This document shows, in pieces, positions 42,688-51,111 of a stretch of DNA of 64,000 nucleotides (its first letter is position 1; each line of letters begins with the position of its first letter). The position numbers were made by a program, and so were the translations under genes. A model generated the notes under the pieces. The model had not been told where the DNA came from. It worked only from the letters and a program-made list of their open reading frames with translations, and searched no databases. The stretch is from Bacteroidota bacterium (lineage in GTDB: Bacteria > Bacteroidota > Bacteroidia > Bacteroidales > JAAUTT01), in assembly GCA_021779665.1 (NCBI GenBank), contig JAJYAG010000001.1, positions 67,396 through 131,395 of the forward strand, in the 5' to 3' direction.

Positions 42688-42800
42688 AACGACAGCTAAT
42701 GCAGAATACAAGTCGATAATCGATAGTCTATCGACTAAACGCTATTGACCTGTATTCTTGTATTGGCTATTGACCATGGACTAAAAGCTATCGACTAACT
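42688..42800. repeat. GTCGAC-word element, locus C (ATCGAC/ATTGAC dialect), overlapping the 3' end of the A2M gene
   Basis: Begins aaacgacagctaatgcagaatacaag. The words ctatcgactaa and gctattgacc then occur in mirror order around tgtattcttgtattg. The last ctatcgactaa supplies the A2M stop codon and its final codons. Confidence 0.7.
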
Positions 42801-45800
42801 TTAACCACCTCTCCATCAATCCAATATTTCATCTCATTTGTATAATAAAGGTAAGTACAACTTGCGGGGGCCTGGTAAGTTCCGGCGATTTCGGATCGTA
42901 AGTCGAGCTTTATTTCTTTCTCTTCGCCTGGTGCCATTTCTCTGTAATACAGCACTAAAAGATTCTTATTCACTTCATAGAAATCTACTTTGCCTTTTTC
43001 CTGAATCTCTTTTAACTGCCAGGGCTGCAGACTTAATCCTGAGGGTATTCCGATGATTGCCATTGTCATAGGCAATCCATCATTGGTGATATTCCGAAGT
43101 TTAATGTTCATACGTACCGTTTCTCCAACCCTTGTATTATGAGTGGAAAGGGCTGTTTCTAAAAGTAACTTGCTATCAGGATGCGATGCCGGGGTGCTGC
43201 TGTTCCATGATGCATCGAACGAAAAGGGCATTGAAGCCTGTGTGCCTGAAAACCTGATTAGGACTTTATTGGTACCTTCCTGAAGATATTTTTCAAATCG
43301 TGCAAGAACAATCTTCCCCTTGTCACCCTTCCTGAAACTTTGTGAACCGGCATTGCTGCCATTGATAATAAGGCTGATTTCTCCATCGCTGTTAACCTGG
43401 GCCGACTGGAGTGAATAAGCCGTAAGGGCCTTTAAGGCAAGAATGGTGGCCTGTGTTGATCCAAAACCTCCATAAGAGCGGGAAGAAATAATAAAATTGA
43501 CTGATTTTTCAAGCTCACTCCAGCTATACAGGGTGGTTTTTAACGCTGCCATGATATACAAGGATGCTGTTTCAACCTGTAACGATTTTCCATAAGAATG
43601 AGTAAACGAAGGTTGAATAGTTAACTGATCCCAACTTTTGTTATCTATCTTTTTTTGAATCATTTCCAGCATCTTACTTCCATCATTGGTTTTCTTATAA
43701 TTAAAGGCTGCATTCGCCATCAAAGCCAGGCGGTAAGGATCCTCGCTCTTTAAAGCTTCCTGCTTTGCCAGTTCATATTCAGTATCAATTTTATCAATTC
43801 CGGCTTCCGATAAAGCATAAACCACATAGGCATTGGTAACCTGGTCGCTTGTGCCGCCAAAGCTATATTTCTGATAGTTATCGCCTTTGAAGTTGCCTTT
43901 CCCATCGCGGTGTTTCAGAATCCATTTCAGGGTTCTGTCCATCATCGCCTGGTCAACGTCATCGTAAACAGCTTTCATATCGGTAAATTCCATAAATCCA
44001 TAGGCAGTGAGGCCTAAATGTCCGGGCGCATGACCAAACCATTCAAAACCATTCTGGGAGGTTTCAAAGCTTTTTAAACGGTCATACCCTGTTTTGATAA
44101 GTTTGAGTGCCCTTTGCGAAACCATTGCCGTATCCATGCCTCTGGATTTCAGGTATTGTAAAACCATGATGTTTGGATAAGTGCTCGACGAAGTCTGTTC
44201 AAAACAACCATAAGGTTCCCTCAGAATCGATTCAATACCCGATAATAGATCGCTCAGAATGTCAGGATAAGCTGAAAACTGGGCTTTTAAGGAACCCGGA
44301 ATGGCCTTGCTGATTGTAAATGTGAAGTTCTTTTCCGTCTCCTTTGCCGACACCGAAAAAGATGCAGGAAAACCTTTGGGCTGGATATCAACCTCCTGAT
44401 TAAATGCATCGCTGTTTGTACCACCGTCGAAATTAATCCCAAGTTTTACTTTACCGGCCATATTTCTGACAAAGAATGGAACGGATAAATTACGGTCGGA
44501 AAATGGAGCTATTTCAACTGAGTCGGGTAAAATAGTCAAGGGATTAAGATTCTCAGGAACATAGTATTGCAACTTTCCTGTTAATGTTTTGGATGTATTA
44601 TTTTTAAGAATCAGAGGCATCACAACTGTATCGCCAAAGGAAACATAAGCAGGAAACTTCACAGCCATACTGAATGGCAGCTGGGTATAGAATTTCTTTT
44701 CGGTACGACCCACATCGCCTGTGTTTCCAATACCTTCGGCTACAGCCCTGAAGGTTGTAATTTCGTCGGATGTATAAAATTCCACTTCGGCACTACCGGC
44801 GTTATTGGTACTGATGTTGGGATTCCAGTAAATCGTCGATCTGAAATCGGTCCGTTCCTTAGGTGTTTCATTCTCTTTATAAACCGGATAATAAAACTCT
44901 TTGATGCCAGACAGCCTTCTAGGCGAAATGAGTAAGCCGGAATATCGTGGTTTGAAGCTTTTCTTTAACTGCTTGTAATACCCATTATTGGCCGAAGTTG
45001 TAATCAATATTACCCCATTTGCTGCTCTGCAACCGTAAATTGAAGTAGCGCTCGCATCTTTTAATACCGAAATGCTTGCGATATTCGACACGGGAATGTT
45101 ATGGAGGATTGATTTACTATCGGACAAGGAAGGATCGTAGACAACGCCGTCAACCACATACAAAGGTTCATTCACTGATAAAGCGTTTGTCCCCCGGATA
45201 GTAACCTGCGGCGATACACCTGGCTGACCCTGATCGTTGATAACATTTAACCCGGCAACACGTCCCTGTAATGCCTGGTTAACCATACCCGGCAAGGTTT
45301 GAATATTGCTTGCAGTTACTTTGGTAACTGAGCCTGTAAGATCGGCTTTTCTTTGTGTTCCGTAACCGATTACTACAATCTCGTCGAGGCTTTTCACATC
45401 TTCATCAAGTATCATGTCAGGCCCTTTGCCCATTTCGACTGTTTCGGTAACATAGGATGTAACTGATCTTTTTTTGCTGATTTCCCCGGTCTTTACCTTC
45501 ACAATTTCGGGCATCAGCGATTCTCCGCTTATTGAGGAGCCCAAGCCTGTGCCAGCCAATTCATTCAGATAATCAATTTCTATGTAAATATCAGATATAT
45601 CAATTTCGCTGCTCCGGGCCAACACCTGAATATGTGATGATGCATCAGCATTTTCGAACCTGAAACGACCCAGTTCAGTTGTGCTAACTTTTAAAATTCT
45701 TTTGCGGTTTTCCAATTCAATTACAACAACTTCCGCTTTTACAGGCTTTCCATCTCTTTTATCCTTAACAGTGCCACTAATACAGCCAATTCTTTCGGCG

Positions 45801-47443
45801 GGATAAAGTACATTGTAATTCATTTTCAGGACCTCATTCCAGTAATATCTGCGCCAACCCTGGGTTAATAAAAGGTAATTGAGGGCCTTTTCAGCTTTTG
45901 GTTCTTCAGGGTTGAAATAAAACTCAGGTTTCTCAACTTTCCCTTTGATTTCGGAGCCCAGCAACATCCACGATAGAATATTATGCTGCTTGTCATCGGC
46001 CATGGTCATAAGCTGATCTTTCACAACAGCCAGCGAAAGATTTGCAGCTACCGGAATACTGTCCTTATCGGTTGTACGAATGCTCAGCTTTACCTTCTGG
46101 CGCGGGTTATATTTTTCCTTATCGAACCTTAGAGATATGTTTAAACGCTTATTATAATTGAAGAACATCAGCCGCTCGCAACGAGGATTCCCCTGTCGGT
46201 CGAACAAAGTTGCAATAGCAGTACCAGTAGGAAATTTATCGGCCGAAAATTCTATTTCGTTGCTATTTCCGCCTGCATTTTCGGAATAAGTGAAATAAGT
46301 TCCGTTAGCTGACTGAACCGCAAAATGAACCCTTTCGCCCTGAGGCGCATGATATATAGCTTTATACCTGTTTTCGCCGGCAGGAACCACTCTTAGCGTG
46401 TACCCCCTGGGCATTACTTCGGGCAATTCGAACCTTTCTTTGATTTGAGGTTTCGTAATTACAGCAAAGTAATGCTTTCCGGGAACAGGAAACATTTCGA
46501 AAGCTCCCATTCCCTGGTGAAAGCTGCTGAATTCAAGAATTCTGTTATTGGTATTGTCGGTAATATATCCTTCTACTTCAGCAGGTTTACCAAATTCGTT
46601 TACAGCTTTAAATGCAATATTACCCGGAATATTAGCCACAAGGTATCCTCCTTCCGGAAAGAATTCAATATTGATTTTATTCAAAACAATGGGTATAGAG
46701 CGGGAAACAGCCTCTGTACTGCCTTCGTGCAATATTTTGGCATTGATAAGTCCGTCGCTGCTTTTCAGCGTTTCGGGGAGGATATACTGCAGCATCACTT
46801 TACCTTTATTATCGGTCTGAAGGTCAACCGTTTTTACCTTTTCCCCGGCAAGTGATATATCTGCTTTTACGTTTTTGAAAGTTAAAGGAACATTTTCGAG
46901 TGTTTCAACTTTCAGCTCAGCCTTCACAGTATCGCCCGGGGAATAGCTTTCTCTTTTAAAATCAATCTTTGCCAGCAACCGTGGATAAACCACTTTCTGA
47001 ATCTGAATTTCCTTTTCGAAGTAATAATCCACCCCAAAATTTTTCATCCAGGTGGTGTAAGCCTTTATTTTGTAGAGTCCGCCTGCATAAGAATCGTCGA
47101 TGGTGAAGCTGCCGGAACAAACTCCCTGAATCACCTGAAGTGTCAACGATTTATCAACATTGCTGCGGGGATTGATAAGCTCGATATAAACAACATCCGA
47201 TTGTCGGGATGGGAGATTGGTAGCTCCATCAGTCACAAAAGCCTTGAACCAGATATCTTCTCCGGGCTTGTACAGCGATTTATCTACATGCAGATACACC
47301 TTTTCAAAAGGCTTGTTTTTATAAAAGGAGCTCACAAAGTTCTTCAGAGCAGCAATAAAAGGATCTTCCGACTGGCTGAAATAAACAAAGCCAGAACAAA
47401 TAAGGGTTAATATCAAGGCTGTGGTTATAATTTTTGTTTTCAT
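42788..47443 (-). CDS. Alpha-2-macroglobulin-family thioester protein with an internal CarboxypepD_reg + TonB-dependent-receptor Plug cassette
   Basis: 1551 aa with a signal peptide (possible lipobox LTLIC). MG-type N-terminal domains (YLHVDKSLYKPGEDIWFKAFV; LLLTQGWRRYYW). Residues ~555-625 are CarboxypepD_reg-like (ISGTVKDKRDGKPVKAEVVVIE...GRFRFEN). Residues ~686-816 are SusC-type Plug motifs (LDEIVVIGYGTQRKADLTGSV, VTIRGTNAL, PLYVVDGVVYD, ISVLKDASATSIYGCRAANGVILITT). Then come an A2M block (FRSTIYWNPNISTNNAGSAEVEFYTSDEITTFRAVAEG), the thioester EPYGCFEQT (Cys1080) and a receptor-binding-type C-terminal domain. Confidence 0.85.
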   Translation of the reverse strand: MKTKIITTALILTLICSGFVYFSQSEDPFIAALKNFVSSFYKNKPFEKVYLHVDKSLYKPGEDIWFKAFVTDGATNLPSRQSDVVYIELINPRSNVDKSLTLQVIQGVCSGSFTIDDSYAGGLYKIKAYTTWMKNFGVDYYFEKEIQIQKVVYPRLLAKIDFKRESYSPGDTVKAELKVETLENVPLTFKNVKADISLAGEKVKTVDLQTDNKGKVMLQYILPETLKSSDGLINAKILHEGSTEAVSRSIPIVLNKINIEFFPEGGYLVANIPGNIAFKAVNEFGKPAEVEGYITDNTNNRILEFSSFHQGMGAFEMFPVPGKHYFAVITKPQIKERFELPEVMPRGYTLRVVPAGENRYKAIYHAPQGERVHFAVQSANGTYFTYSENAGGNSNEIEFSADKFPTGTAIATLFDRQGNPRCERLMFFNYNKRLNISLRFDKEKYNPRQKVKLSIRTTDKDSIPVAANLSLAVVKDQLMTMADDKQHNILSWMLLGSEIKGKVEKPEFYFNPEEPKAEKALNYLLLTQGWRRYYWNEVLKMNYNVLYPAERIGCISGTVKDKRDGKPVKAEVVVIELENRKRILKVSTTELGRFRFENADASSHIQVLARSSEIDISDIYIEIDYLNELAGTGLGSSISGESLMPEIVKVKTGEISKKRSVTSYVTETVEMGKGPDMILDEDVKSLDEIVVIGYGTQRKADLTGSVTKVTASNIQTLPGMVNQALQGRVAGLNVINDQGQPGVSPQVTIRGTNALSVNEPLYVVDGVVYDPSLSDSKSILHNIPVSNIASISVLKDASATSIYGCRAANGVILITTSANNGYYKQLKKSFKPRYSGLLISPRRLSGIKEFYYPVYKENETPKERTDFRSTIYWNPNISTNNAGSAEVEFYTSDEITTFRAVAEGIGNTGDVGRTEKKFYTQLPFSMAVKFPAYVSFGDTVVMPLILKNNTSKTLTGKLQYYVPENLNPLTILPDSVEIAPFSDRNLSVPFFVRNMAGKVKLGINFDGGTNSDAFNQEVDIQPKGFPASFSVSAKETEKNFTFTISKAIPGSLKAQFSAYPDILSDLLSGIESILREPYGCFEQTSSSTYPNIMVLQYLKSRGMDTAMVSQRALKLIKTGYDRLKSFETSQNGFEWFGHAPGHLGLTAYGFMEFTDMKAVYDDVDQAMMDRTLKWILKHRDGKGNFKGDNYQKYSFGGTSDQVTNAYVVYALSEAGIDKIDTEYELAKQEALKSEDPYRLALMANAAFNYKKTNDGSKMLEMIQKKIDNKSWDQLTIQPSFTHSYGKSLQVETASLYIMAALKTTLYSWSELEKSVNFIISSRSYGGFGSTQATILALKALTAYSLQSAQVNSDGEISLIINGSNAGSQSFRKGDKGKIVLARFEKYLQEGTNKVLIRFSGTQASMPFSFDASWNSSTPASHPDSKLLLETALSTHNTRVGETVRMNIKLRNITNDGLPMTMAIIGIPSGLSLQPWQLKEIQEKGKVDFYEVNKNLLVLYYREMAPGEEKEIKLDLRSEIAGTYQAPASCTYLYYTNEMKYWIDGEVVKVSR

Positions 47444-47575: not shown

Positions 47576-50449
47576 TTAGAGACTTACCTTTATCGAAATT
47601 CCAACACTACTTACCGCCGGCATATTGAAAAGATCCAGTCCACCAGTATTCGATTTCTTCCAGAGGGTTATATTCGGATCGGAGCCGCTATAGCTGGTAA
47701 TGAGTAACGGATTGCGGATGAAAACCGAGATTTCAGGTTTAAAATCACGCATTCTGTAAAATTTATAACTTACTGATATCTCACGGATCCTGAACCAGGA
47801 GGCATTTTCAACCGCATCTTCTGCAACACCGGTCATGCCGTAGCGATACCAGCGATTCTGCTGCAGGGATCGGGTGGGATTGGCAAAATCAACCGGTGTA
47901 GTATTTACAGTGCCATCCTCCTTTACTCCCGGAAAAATATATTCCAGTACCTTCCGCCCTTCAACAGTCTTTTCCGACAAACCCAGGTACGATAAAACAT
48001 TACCCGTGCCGTTCCAAACCTGTCCCCCGTGCCTGTATTCCATTAAGATACTTGTAGTAAAGCTGCCCAAAAAAATTGTCGGTTCGAAACCTATTGTAAA
48101 ATCGGGTTGAGGATTGGCAATCACTTTCAGGTTATCATCCACAAGCGGATAACCATCTTCTCCGATAATCAATTTCCCATTATCATCTCTTCTCCAGGAA
48201 GTTCCAACCACCACACCTGCAGGATATCCTTTTATCAGCGAGGTATGCACATCGGCATAACCGCCTAAGGGAATCTCACGGTTGTTTCCATAAATATTGG
48301 TAACTACAGATTTATAGCTGTCGAAAATAAAACGAAACTGAGAGGACCTGTTGTTGTACACGAAGTTCTGGTAGATTAGAATTTCTGCTTCTATTCCGCG
48401 CGTTCTGGTGGACGCCAGATTCTTCACCAGCACTTCCCCATTTTCCAAAACCGGGAACATTGCATTGGTGGTTTTGTGCTCATAAAAATCAATATCGAGC
48501 GAAATCTTATTATTCAAAAAACCAAATTCTCCACCTGCATCTTTCTTTTCAACCTTTTCGGGAGTAAGACCCAGGTTGGGAATTATTTCGTGCTCAAAAA
48601 GGGTATTGTAAAAATCGGATGAGCGGATGTTCTGAAAGTTATATTTACCAAAAGAACTGTTCATGGCTGCAAAAGAATAATTATATCCCCAGTTGGCTTT
48701 CAGCTTTATTCGTTCAACAAAGCCATGTATTCTGAAGATATCATCAATATTGAAGCCCAATGCATATGTCGGAGCATAAAGCATTTTGTTTCCGTGATAG
48801 TGATTATTTCCACTGAAGTTGTGTGTCATTTTAAGCAATATCCCTTTTCGGAAAGTCAGATTTGAATTCCAGTTTATACTATGTTCTTCGCGGGAAAGAC
48901 TATAGTTTGTTTTTGTAAGTATTTCATCAGACAAAACTTCATCTCTGCGCGCCAATTCTGAATTCACACTGTAATATTCGTACCTTAGCGAAGAGCTTAA
49001 ATCAGCATATCTGAAATATTTGTTCAGGTTAATGCCTGTGGCGGATAAAAAAGACTCCAGCGAACCATTACGGAAAGTATTTGCTGTTTCGTCCATGCCA
49101 ACAGGCACAGATAAAAACCCGGTGTAAACTTTATTTTTTTGGTTTTGATATCTGAAGTCGGTAAAAACTGAAAACTGGCCGGACAGTTTGTATTCAAGAT
49201 TTAACACGCTGTTGATGGATTGCTGGTTCTCCTTATCCTGCATATTATGAAGCAACCAGTAAGGGTGGTTAACTTTACCCGCTGCATAGCTCCTTTGTGT
49301 CCCATTCTCCAGCTGATATGTTTCGGAGGAGTTATATGCATCTCTGGCTTTTTTACCTCCGGTTATATCAAAACTAGGTGGTGATGTTAATATGGAAGCT
49401 ATTACCAGGGTGCTGTTAGGAGAACCGTCGAGGTAGTTGCTTTTTAAATTATCGATGGTAAGTTGTCCTCCAATTTTGAACCTGCCATATACGCGCTTTA
49501 ATTTCAAATCGACAATATTCCCATTACTTTTTTGTCCGGCTAAGATACCCTTGTTTAACTGGTTGCTGAGCGCTATCGAATATTCTTTGCGCTCCGTTTT
49601 AAGAAAAATTTTCAGACTGTTGATATAAGTAAAGCCATTGCAAAATGCTTTTGACGGATCGTAACTCCGGGCCGGATTTCCGTTTCCGGTATTTTTGGGT
49701 ACCAGGCGGCCGTTGGAATCATAATCCCAGCTACTTCCATCAAATTCGAAGTTTTGAAGATTGGGTCCCCAGCTTAGTATTTCGCCGGTTTCGGGCGATT
49801 GCCACTGCGAGGTTCCATTAACCGGCCTTCCCTGTGCAAAACTGCTCTGTAATTTTGGCAACCGGGTATGGTGTTCTGTTGAAACCGAGGTAAAATAAGA
49901 AACATGCGGAATCCGGATGTATTCATCCCTGACCATATTGATCCGTGCCAGATCTTTGCCAAAATCGATACTTCCAATCTTGTTAACTACCATGTCATGG
50001 TCGTGCAACCAGTTATAATCAGGATTTATTACAGAAAAGGAAGGCGTTGAGGAGGTAAACACTGCTCTTCCTTCTTCAGCAGGTAATGTGTCAGTATATT
50101 CCGGGTAAGAAACCGGTACATAACTTCTCTCAGGCTGTGGTTCACCGGAAGTTATGTTCTGACTTTGCCCCCCGGGTTCTGAGTTTTTAACCGTAACGAG
50201 CATTTCTTTGGTGCTAAAACCTATATAAGAGAATACCAGTGTGGATCCCAAAGGGGCATTAATGCTGTAGGTTCCGTTAATATCGGTTACCACACCGGTG
50301 GTGGTTCCTTTAATATTTATGCTAACTCCTATTAATGGCTCCCCGGAACTATCTTTCATGGTACCTCTAATCAAACGCATTTCCTGCGAAAAGGCCATTC
50401 TTAAAGAAAAAAGGAACAGCAGTGTTAAAATTATTTTATAAGGCTTCAT
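47576..50449 (-). CDS. SusC/RagA-like TonB-dependent outer-membrane barrel lacking a recognisable Plug domain
   Basis: Started at the ATG at 50449 (MKPYKIILTLLFLFSLRMAFSQE); the track's TTG at 50524 is rejected. A CarboxypepD_reg block is present (IRGTMKDSSGEPLIGVSINIKGTTTGVVTDINGTYSINAPLGSTLVFSYIGF). About 90 aa of Pro/Ser/Glu-rich sequence follow, without the plug motifs. Then comes a SusC-type barrel ending ...ITSYSGSDPNI...NMPAVSSVGISIKVSL. No susD-like gene follows. Confidence 0.85.
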   Translation of the reverse strand: MKPYKIILTLLFLFSLRMAFSQEMRLIRGTMKDSSGEPLIGVSINIKGTTTGVVTDINGTYSINAPLGSTLVFSYIGFSTKEMLVTVKNSEPGGQSQNITSGEPQPERSYVPVSYPEYTDTLPAEEGRAVFTSSTPSFSVINPDYNWLHDHDMVVNKIGSIDFGKDLARINMVRDEYIRIPHVSYFTSVSTEHHTRLPKLQSSFAQGRPVNGTSQWQSPETGEILSWGPNLQNFEFDGSSWDYDSNGRLVPKNTGNGNPARSYDPSKAFCNGFTYINSLKIFLKTERKEYSIALSNQLNKGILAGQKSNGNIVDLKLKRVYGRFKIGGQLTIDNLKSNYLDGSPNSTLVIASILTSPPSFDITGGKKARDAYNSSETYQLENGTQRSYAAGKVNHPYWLLHNMQDKENQQSINSVLNLEYKLSGQFSVFTDFRYQNQKNKVYTGFLSVPVGMDETANTFRNGSLESFLSATGINLNKYFRYADLSSSLRYEYYSVNSELARRDEVLSDEILTKTNYSLSREEHSINWNSNLTFRKGILLKMTHNFSGNNHYHGNKMLYAPTYALGFNIDDIFRIHGFVERIKLKANWGYNYSFAAMNSSFGKYNFQNIRSSDFYNTLFEHEIIPNLGLTPEKVEKKDAGGEFGFLNNKISLDIDFYEHKTTNAMFPVLENGEVLVKNLASTRTRGIEAEILIYQNFVYNNRSSQFRFIFDSYKSVVTNIYGNNREIPLGGYADVHTSLIKGYPAGVVVGTSWRRDDNGKLIIGEDGYPLVDDNLKVIANPQPDFTIGFEPTIFLGSFTTSILMEYRHGGQVWNGTGNVLSYLGLSEKTVEGRKVLEYIFPGVKEDGTVNTTPVDFANPTRSLQQNRWYRYGMTGVAEDAVENASWFRIREISVSYKFYRMRDFKPEISVFIRNPLLITSYSGSDPNITLWKKSNTGGLDLFNMPAVSSVGISIKVSL

Positions 50450-50601
50450 GGTTAAAATTTTTGGTTCACACTTAGGATGAAGCTCAAAAATTTGTCCCCT
50501 AAAAAATGAATAAAAAAAGTTCAATTCAGCCGCAAGAAATTGTAACTTTCGTTGTCAAACATTCAATTTACTTCCATAATTAACTTCTAAACTATCTAAA
50601 C

Positions 50602-51111
50602 ATGAAAAGTAATTTTTTAAAGCCAACCACCTTGATTTTTGTAAGTCTTCTGTTTTTTACAGCTTTTACAGTTTCAGCCCAGAAGCCAAGCTTTGGAGGA
50701 ACCTGGAATCTGAATCAGGAAAAAAGTCAGTTGGGCGAAGGTCCGGGCAGACGCGCTGCTGCCAAAATTGTTATCAACGAAATTGAAAGCAGCATGATAG
50801 TCGAACGTACTTCTACTCGTCAATCGGGCGAAACCATGACCACAAAAGAAATTTATAACCTTACCGGAACTGAGACTGATAACTCCACCGAAAACAGGAA
50901 GAAAAAATCAGTAGCCTCCTGGTCGGCCGACAGCAAGGAACTCACCATTAAATCGACCACCACATTTGAACGCGATGGCAACAGCATGGAAATGAAATCG
51001 ACCGAGGTTTATAAAATAAGCGACGATAAAAAAACGTTAACAATAGATAACACGATGAGCTCGCAGCGGGGCGATTTTAAAACCACACTGGTTTACGACC
51101 TCGCTCAATAA
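50602..51111 (+). CDS. Small secreted beta-rich protein (lipocalin-like?), paralogue of 4196..4711
   Basis: 169 aa. Signal peptide ends ...FTVSAQKP, followed by FGGTW. Shares blocks with 4196..4711. Divergent from the barrel gene across a 152-bp gap. Confidence 0.5.
   Translation: MKSNFLKPTTLIFVSLLFFTAFTVSAQKPSFGGTWNLNQEKSQLGEGPGRRAAAKIVINEIESSMIVERTSTRQSGETMTTKEIYNLTGTETDNSTENRKKKSVASWSADSKELTIKSTTTFERDGNSMEMKSTEVYKISDDKKTLTIDNTMSSQRGDFKTTLVYDLAQ

Follow-up and report, generated by a model that had tools for sequence, protein, structure and literature searches.

A SusC-type barrel without a plug and a neighbouring macroglobulin that carries one: a probable split TonB-dependent transporter in Bacteroidota

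Where is the plug of a SusC-like barrel that has none of its own? TonB-dependent transporters are described as single chains in which plug and barrel fold together. The 64,000-nt stretch of Bacteroidota DNA analysed here (the window, meaning the whole stretch; all coordinates are window positions) carries on its minus strand a gene for a SusC-like protein of 957 aa, in which a first-pass annotation had noticed about 90 aa of unrelated sequence in place of the Plug domain. Each claim of that annotation that we tested stood. What it overlooked is the next gene downstream, which has both a TonB box and a plug, so the plug is not lost from the system. This second gene encodes a thioester protein of the alpha-2-macroglobulin (A2M) family. 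We argue that the two genes are best explained as a naturally split SusC-type TonB-dependent transporter, with the plug donated in trans by a periplasmic thioester protein, and we give this reading a probability of roughly 0.65.

Barrel and plug on neighbouring genes

The flagged segment at 49910-50188 is genuine. Its 93 aa are the exact minus-strand translation and correspond to aa 88-180 of the protein. The barrel gene has the following parts. Structural values are from AlphaFold2 (AF2) models, with confidence given as the predicted local distance difference test (pLDDT).

47576..50449, minus strand: gene for the plug-less SusC-like barrel subunit, an open reading frame (ORF) of 957 aa, stop included; product identical to database protein P0001
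50387..50449, minus strand: signal peptide MKPYKIILTLLFLFSLRMAFS, then Q; read from the sequence, with an AF2 helix at 3-20 and a putative cleavage site
50177..50371, minus strand: N-terminal CarboxypepD_reg (the SusC-type N-terminal extension), aa 27-91; PF13715, E 1.3e-15
49991..50167, minus strand: disordered, weakly conserved core of the segment, aa 95-153; AF2 pLDDT <50, variable in 81 orthologues
49907..49990, minus strand: semi-conserved pre-barrel hairpin, aa 154-181; AF2 strands 158-163 and 168-172, pLDDT 52-59
47579..49906, minus strand: SusC-type beta-barrel, aa 182-957; AF2 pLDDT mostly >90, Foldseek matches to SusC/RagA

The gene starts at ATG 50449, which yields the product identical to P0001; a mechanical ORF list starts it at TTG 50524, 25 codons upstream. 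About 45 nt upstream of the ATG (region 50450-50524, minus strand) a AATTTTTG motif resembles the Bacteroidota -7 promoter element TAnnTTTG.

The segment lies where it was said to lie, between the CarboxypepD_reg domain that Pfam places at aa 27-91 and the first barrel strand, modelled at 182-194. The GYG, IRG and VDG motifs are all absent from it. Pfam finds only CarboxypepD_reg in the barrel protein and no PF07715 Plug at E<=0.1, and the TonB box and the TIGR04057 SusC/RagA signature are missing too. When the protein is aligned to TIGR04056, the SusC/RagA profile of NCBIfam, aa 181-957 take up positions 211-981 and the plug positions stay unmatched; therefore the barrel is present and the plug part of the profile is missing, and the claimed loss of the plug in cis holds. 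The score, 193.9 bits, is about half the curated cut-off of 368.25 and below the threshold for membership. A sequence search of the PDB matched significantly only the N-terminal domain, which aligns with the same domain of the SusC structures 8aa4 and 9hfj, so a fold search was required for this protein. The AF2 model, built from 31 family members, has a mean pLDDT of 86.2 and a predicted template modelling score of 0.75. The best Foldseek match is SusC BT2264 (5fq6_D, E 2e-44, TM 0.66); the levan and dextran SusCs and RagA come next, and the SusC/RagA matches include 5fq6, 8a9y, 5t3r and 6sli. Residues shared with canonical SusC barrels are E631 of the L.PE motif, N677, R754 and R832. The L.PE glutamate occurs in 88% of the plug-less barrel family and 98% of canonical SusCs. 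The relatives that a search with the barrel protein returns form a coherent plug-less group (25-74% identity, 912-986 aa, without PF07715), and the closest plug-bearing SusCs align to it over the barrel alone, about 81% of the query. An identity as BamP (NF053692) was considered and rejected: the match scores 22.6 bits where 230 are needed and is confined to the N-terminal CarboxypepD_reg.

The macroglobulin gene follows on the same strand after a gap of 132 nt. No terminator-like site was found on the minus strand between the two genes; there is one after the macroglobulin stop, at 42736-42711. That hairpin is the only feature noted from a sigma-70 promoter and terminator scan whose counts were at shuffle level, Bacteroidota promoters being outside its model. 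The gene is organised as follows.

42788..47443, minus strand: gene for an alpha-2-macroglobulin/TEP-like thioester protein of 1551 aa; Pfam domain set and PDB matches
47372..47443, minus strand: N-terminal signal peptide or signal anchor; from comparison of N-termini, localisation putative
45575..45781, minus strand: CarboxypepD_reg inside the macroglobulin-like protein, aa 555-623; PF13620 at aa 555-608 (23.9 bits, under the cut-off), AF2 beta-sandwich
45386..45574, minus strand: long variable acidic linker, aa 624-686; AF2 pLDDT <50 for aa 628-704
45359..45385, minus strand: TonB box DEIVVIGYG, aa 687-695; conserved in homologues, aligns to the TonB-box region of SusC BT1762
44984..45358, minus strand: SusC-type plug with IRG, PLYVVDG and the SusC/RagA signature, aa 696-820; PF07715 E 4.3e-16, TIGR04056/TIGR04057
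44819..44983, minus strand: return linker and 'ERTDFRSTIYWNP' motif, aa 821-875; resumption of TEP1 homology
44195..44209, minus strand: predicted thioester motif GCFEQ, aa 1079-1083; 111/111 family members, aligns to GCGEQ of TEP1

Pfam recognises, in order, MG2 (PF01835), A2M_BRD (PF07703), A2M (PF00207), TED_complement (PF07678) and A2M_recep (PF07677). It also places a Plug at aa 699-811, the only one in the pair. This plug matches that of SusC BT1762 at E 7e-30, and the TIGR04057 signature scores 59.8 bits, above its cut-off of 46.2. PDB sequence and fold matches are to TEP1, CD109, A2M, ECAM and SusC plugs. Homology to insect TEP1 resumes at 'ERTDFRSTIYW' ('ERTDFRSTIYWNP', aa 862-875), where aa 863 corresponds to TEP1 residue 604. 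In A2M/C3 proteins 'ERTDFRSTIYWNP' is the conserved motif that comes after the site of the bait or anaphylatoxin, and the position of the bait region is therefore taken by the insertion at aa ~555-861. What stands there, between the bait-region domain and the R.xF..(S/T).(I/L)W motif, is a CarboxypepD_reg domain, a disordered linker of ~63 aa, the TonB box and the plug. The linker could still serve as protease bait.

An AF2 model of the fragment aa 380-1010, built from 63 sequences, agrees with this anatomy. The CarboxypepD_reg forms a beta-sandwich (aa 553-623, pLDDT 87-93), aa 628-704 are disordered with the TonB box included, and the macroglobulin (MG) domain that follows is confident. Foldseek matches the fragment to ECAM, Salmonella A2M, CD109 and C5, and also to SusC N-terminal regions. 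Across 111 homologues the TonB box is conserved as (S/E/D)EVVV(V/T)GYG, the linker N-terminal of the plug (aa 613-685) is acidic, 55-90 aa long and the least conserved part of the protein, and the return linker after the plug has a fixed length of 33-42 aa. Just before the CarboxypepD_reg insert, a helical stretch with the sequence '...LNYLLLTQGWRRYYWNEVL' (45794-46012, minus strand; aa 478-550) is among the most conserved parts of the protein, and its pLDDT in the fragment model is <50.

The two neighbours hold complementary, non-overlapping parts of one profile. Macroglobulin aa 666-817 match TIGR04056 positions 56-204 with 181.9 bits, and the barrel takes up the profile at 211. The two partial scores sum to about the cut-off.

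The two genes also stay together. A survey of one genome per species found at least 294 species with a barrel relative; 80 loci were retrieved, 75 of them with enough flanking DNA. In 74 of these 75 the immediate downstream neighbour of the barrel gene, on the same strand, is an A2M_N-plug-A2M_C gene. A plug match inside the barrel gene was not found in any retrieved locus that contains one. Look-ups from the barrel side (L001, L003 and L004: a JGI metagenome contig, Aquimarina rubra and a Chitinophagaceae metagenome-assembled genome) found the pair in 3/3, and look-ups from the macroglobulin side (Fulvivirga ligni, Limibacter armeniacum and a Marinilabiliaceae strain) found a plug-less barrel directly upstream in 3/3. 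Carriers include Flavobacteriales, Cytophagales, Chitinophagales and Marinilabiliales, with the cultured Leeuwenhoekiella blandensis MED217 and Chitinophaga filiformis DSM 527 among them. Domain anatomy, complementarity of the halves and strict co-occurrence are thus direct observations. Both halves are under purifying selection; the TonB box, the IRG arginine (80/81 macroglobulin partners), GCFEQ (invariant in all 111 members, a predicted thioester) and the shared barrel residues are conserved.

Two loci deserve separate mention. L060 (2214-9886) is the sole retrieved locus with the macroglobulin-plug gene upstream of the barrel gene. L006 (13007-17662, GCA_027352335.1), from another assembly, has an identical barrel protein and a macroglobulin gene annotated as two ORFs, of 902 and 626 aa. 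This is probably a frameshift or assembly error there; the window ORF is intact at 1551 aa.

Apart from the partner gene, no conserved neighbour was found across the loci examined. SusD was not found in the window neighbourhood or in loci L001-L006; the gene downstream of the window barrel is the macroglobulin. The closest unsplit plug-bearing relative, P0039 of Ekhidna lutea, is an ordinary SusC followed by SusD, whose place the macroglobulin gene takes in the split system. Divergent from the pair, at 50602-51111 on the plus strand, is a 169-aa protein with a signal peptide and no Pfam or PADLOC match. A 173-aa counterpart stands in the same position in the closely related L001 and L002, and none is evident in the Pfam tables of L003-L005.

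The macroglobulin family also supplies a natural control. Searching with the macroglobulin gives >1400 matches; among the top 120, 114 have the Plug and 5 a TonB C-terminal domain (TonB_C, PF03544). In P0202 (L007 10001-14887), P0228 (L090 384-5201) and others TonB_C replaces the TonB box and plug at the same bait-position site; two CarboxypepD_reg domains precede it, and the A2M domain begins ~55 aa further on. No plug-less barrel was found beside the TonB_C-bearing sister genes examined. The dedicated barrel goes with the plug insert and is missing where TonB_C stands instead. Both inserts belong to the periplasmic interaction between TonB and the TonB box, and the TonB_C-bearing sisters might dock onto the TonB boxes of ordinary transporters.

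How the pair may work, and what else it might be

Docking in trans, residence in the periplasm, coupling to TonB and the function of the pair are what we infer. The barrel half would be a signal peptide, a CarboxypepD_reg domain, a mostly disordered tether of ~93 aa that is probably the eroded remains of the ancestral plug, and an otherwise typical SusC barrel. The plug half, inserted at the bait-region position of a macroglobulin, would consist of the plug and its intact TonB box together with another CarboxypepD_reg domain and a long, flexible linker. The macroglobulin-like protein would be exported by Sec and retained in the periplasm. [quoted passage not shown] From the periplasm the plug may slip into its partner barrel, with no polypeptide having to pass the membrane. 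Known structures of TonB-dependent transporters have both plug ends facing the periplasm; a plug that is a domain insertion is therefore topologically compatible with entry from below. Once in place it would seal the barrel and tether the thioester trap directly under the outer membrane channel, the exposed TonB box would be engaged by TonB, which would pull on the plug, and the flexible linker and plug would stand in for bait.

What such a device is for we can only conjecture. The most likely role is an envelope guard, an A2M that traps proteases or other intruders at a TonB-gated outer membrane gate and is possibly triggered through it. Any specific trigger mechanism is doubtful to tentative. 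The boldest version, and an unlikely one, is a complement-like immune device of the envelope in which a thioester protein has exchanged its bait for a plug that sits in a dedicated barrel, where it can be reached from the surface and pulled by TonB. An intruding protease might cut the plug or the flexible linker, or TonB might mechanically unfold the plug, for instance during exploitation of the gate by a bacteriocin or a phage protein. In both cases the macroglobulin would undergo its conformational change and covalently trap whatever passes the channel, and the TonB_C sisters would act likewise at ordinary TonB-dependent transporters via their TonB boxes. If true, the A2M/C3 family would gain its first member triggered mechanically by the proton motive force, and the pair would be the first natural two-chain TonB-dependent gate.

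Several results weigh against a split transporter. The isolated plug is modelled at a pLDDT of only ~60-80 in the AF2 fragment, although a moderate value is expected of a model that lacks the barrel. A mutual-information scan with average product correction over 81 gene pairs, a comparison confounded by phylogeny and uninformative, gave no plug-barrel signal above that of other macroglobulin regions. In TonB-dependent transporters the IRG arginine and the L.PE glutamate form a plug-barrel lock, and they may do so in the present pair. In the 81 gene pairs no compensatory pattern was found between barrel E631 and plug Arg750 or Arg806. The putative localisation of the macroglobulin comes from absent signals. 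The gene neighbourhood gives no hint of a role (a pyrophosphatase, a short-chain dehydrogenase, an aminotransferase, a DNA alkylation repair protein and a transporter of the major facilitator superfamily); carbohydrate-active enzymes (CAZymes) and SusD were not found in it, and the PADLOC defence models match neither protein of the pair nor the divergent 169-aa ORF. Lastly, SusC barrels engineered to lack their plug prove viable in Bacteroides and still function (bioRxiv 10.1101/2025.11.13.688124), so a barrel has no strict need for a plug. As a side observation, the top plug-barrel pairs of the scan join the variable plug loop DPSLSDS (aa 771-776) to a helix-containing barrel loop at aa 345-376. 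This signal is not above the control regions and may therefore reflect phylogeny alone.

The strongest rival starts from such functional plug-less barrels. The barrel may be a plug-less channel acting alone, either loop-gated or open to diffusion, while the plug of the macroglobulin has some other role such as a handle for binding TonB or docking to other barrels. Plug-less and lid-less transporters do exist, the engineered plug deletion is functional (same preprint), and the docking of the plug in the barrel is putative. We still consider this improbable. It leaves unexplained the pairing of the genes in 74/75 surveyed loci and 3/3 look-ups, the loss of the barrel gene where the insert is TonB_C, and the exact fit of profile positions 56-204 to 211-981. 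Moreover the barrel is a full-size SusC rather than a small one, and no CAZymes were found nearby.

Less probable again is a macroglobulin displayed on the cell surface. The barrel would then serve it as a dedicated anchor or translocon, and the plug would remain behind in the pore as a stopper, much as in display of the two-partner or autotransporter-like type. Its gene does take the usual site of SusD, a surface lipoprotein, and a thioester protein on the surface could act on external proteases. However, the macroglobulin has no lipobox or other lipoprotein export signal and no T9SS C-terminal domain, and interactions in the periplasm are what its TonB box and the TonB_C variants point to. 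A canonical plug fills the lumen and both starts and ends in the periplasm, a topology in which flanks of ~700 aa would find no path.

The segment in place of the plug

If the plug comes from the macroglobulin, what is the segment that the first-pass annotation singled out? In the AF2 model it does not fold as a divergent plug. The pLDDT is <50 for aa 95-153 and 52-59 for aa 154-180, where there is one short hairpin, and the confident barrel begins with the strand at 182-194. All 30 aligned relatives have a similarly variable segment and lack PF07715. Over 81 orthologues the segment (aa 88 to 182) has a median of 83 aa, is rich in K, S, N and T, and varies in both length and sequence; only its last ~28 residues are semi-conserved. 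The barrel partners in L064, L078, L082, L084, L086 and L087 (Chitinophaga and others) have no N-terminal CarboxypepD_reg. These Chitinophaga-type proteins consist of a signal peptide, 60-75 aa and then the barrel, and they keep the pre-barrel hairpin motif, so the hairpin is the conserved part of the flagged segment.

The annotation had also suggested that the last ~30 aa are a degenerate remnant of the final plug strand. Profile-profile alignment (hhalign) with canonical SusC N-termini is compatible with this. It pairs aa 149-300 with positions 202-367 of P0039 at a probability of 99.9%, and the register reaches the end of the plug, where 'NKIGSIDFGKD' pairs with the canonical 'NDIENITVLKG' and 14 aa with the YG.RA.NGV signature are deleted. 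The remnant is not significant on its own, however: in the same register the segment alone gives E 0.46 with canonical plugs and, through a weak colinear pairing of 'EGRAVFTSSTPSFSV' with 'IRGTNALSVNEPLYV', E 0.029 with the macroglobulin plug. The segment is best seen as a disordered tether, possibly what erosion has left of an ancestral plug's C-terminal half.

The same alignments could be turned into a different argument. If the last ~28 aa are in register with the end of a canonical plug, and 'EGRAVFTSSTPSFSV' is colinear with 'IRGTNALSVNEPLYV', the 93 aa might be a highly divergent mini-plug that fills the barrel, and the protein would be a complete transporter by itself. We regard this as very unlikely. 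Most of the segment (aa 95-153) is modelled with pLDDT <50 and the rest has one weak hairpin; length and sequence vary widely, down to the 60-75 aa of the Chitinophaga-type members; the remnant alignment does not reach significance alone, and there is no TonB box. Finally, one related assembly does split the macroglobulin gene into two ORFs, so assembly errors occur, but the idea that an ordinary SusC gene was frameshifted, mis-assembled or turned into a pseudogene is effectively refuted by conservation: the reading frame is open and intact as the annotation said, an identical barrel protein is present in another assembly, and the architecture is kept in >80 orthologues and at least 80 species, complete genomes of cultured strains included.

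Comparison with known systems

In the papers searched, with most subscription journals outside the coverage, we found no description of a plug-bearing macroglobulin or of a plug-less barrel partner. A Tannerella 'MG2 domain-containing protein', listed as a lipoprotein of 1864 aa (PMC10682907), is not evidently of the plug-bearing macroglobulin family. The pair suggests a link between thioester-based trapping and energised outer membrane gates in environmental Bacteroidota that is likewise not reported there. If the split is real and spans the phylum in nature, it offers a ready-made system for studying plug insertion during assembly with the help of BAM, the beta-barrel assembly machinery, and with the plug on a separate gene the effect of TonB pulling could be probed. 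The pair also extends the range of inserts known for the A2M/complement scaffold, whose bait or anaphylatoxin site accepts whole modules of the TonB system, either a plug with its TonB box or a TonB C-terminal domain.

The barrel is most like the SusC/RagA transporters (TIGR04056; BT2264 5FQ6, BT1762 5T3R, RagA 6SLI), with which it shares the N-terminal CarboxypepD_reg, the SusC-type barrel and the barrel residues named above. The plug of its partner is a typical SusC plug down to the TonB box and signature. The difference is that plug and barrel are on two polypeptides here, and the pair has neither a SusD partner nor the context of a polysaccharide utilization locus.

The macroglobulin shares its MG, A2M, thioester motif-bearing TED and receptor-binding domains with E. 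coli ECAM/YfhM (4ZIQ and 5A42), Salmonella A2M (4U48) and the eukaryotic TEP1, CD109 and C3. What sets it apart is the bait region, in place of which it has CarboxypepD_reg, linker, TonB box and plug; in C3 this site holds the anaphylatoxin domain. ECAM is periplasmic and co-encoded with PBP1c, whereas the window macroglobulin is paired with an outer membrane barrel and its other neighbours are unrelated genes. The lipoprotein Cys of ECAM/YfhM is absent from the window protein and from the 39 family members compared.

The 'Type S' lid-less or plug-less proteins related to TonB-dependent transporters resemble the window barrel in having no Pfam Plug and no SusD neighbour. Those of Bacteroidota are smaller, are found in CAZyme clusters and have been proposed to take up small sugars (bioRxiv 10.1101/2025.11.13.688124). 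The window barrel, in contrast, is a full-size SusC with a dedicated plug-bearing partner, and CAZymes were not found beside it.

The occupation of a barrel by a separately encoded polypeptide, as we propose for the window pair, has a parallel in LptD-LptE, which is a two-protein plug-and-barrel. LptE, unlike the macroglobulin plug, is not homologous to the plug of a transporter and is not coupled to TonB. The closest precedent for a plug supplied in trans is FhuA, whose cork and barrel, when expressed separately, reportedly reconstitute an active transporter in vivo (Braun et al. 2003, J Bacteriol 185:5508). That split is artificial, whereas the one we propose here would be natural, with the plug embedded in a thioester protein of 1551 aa.

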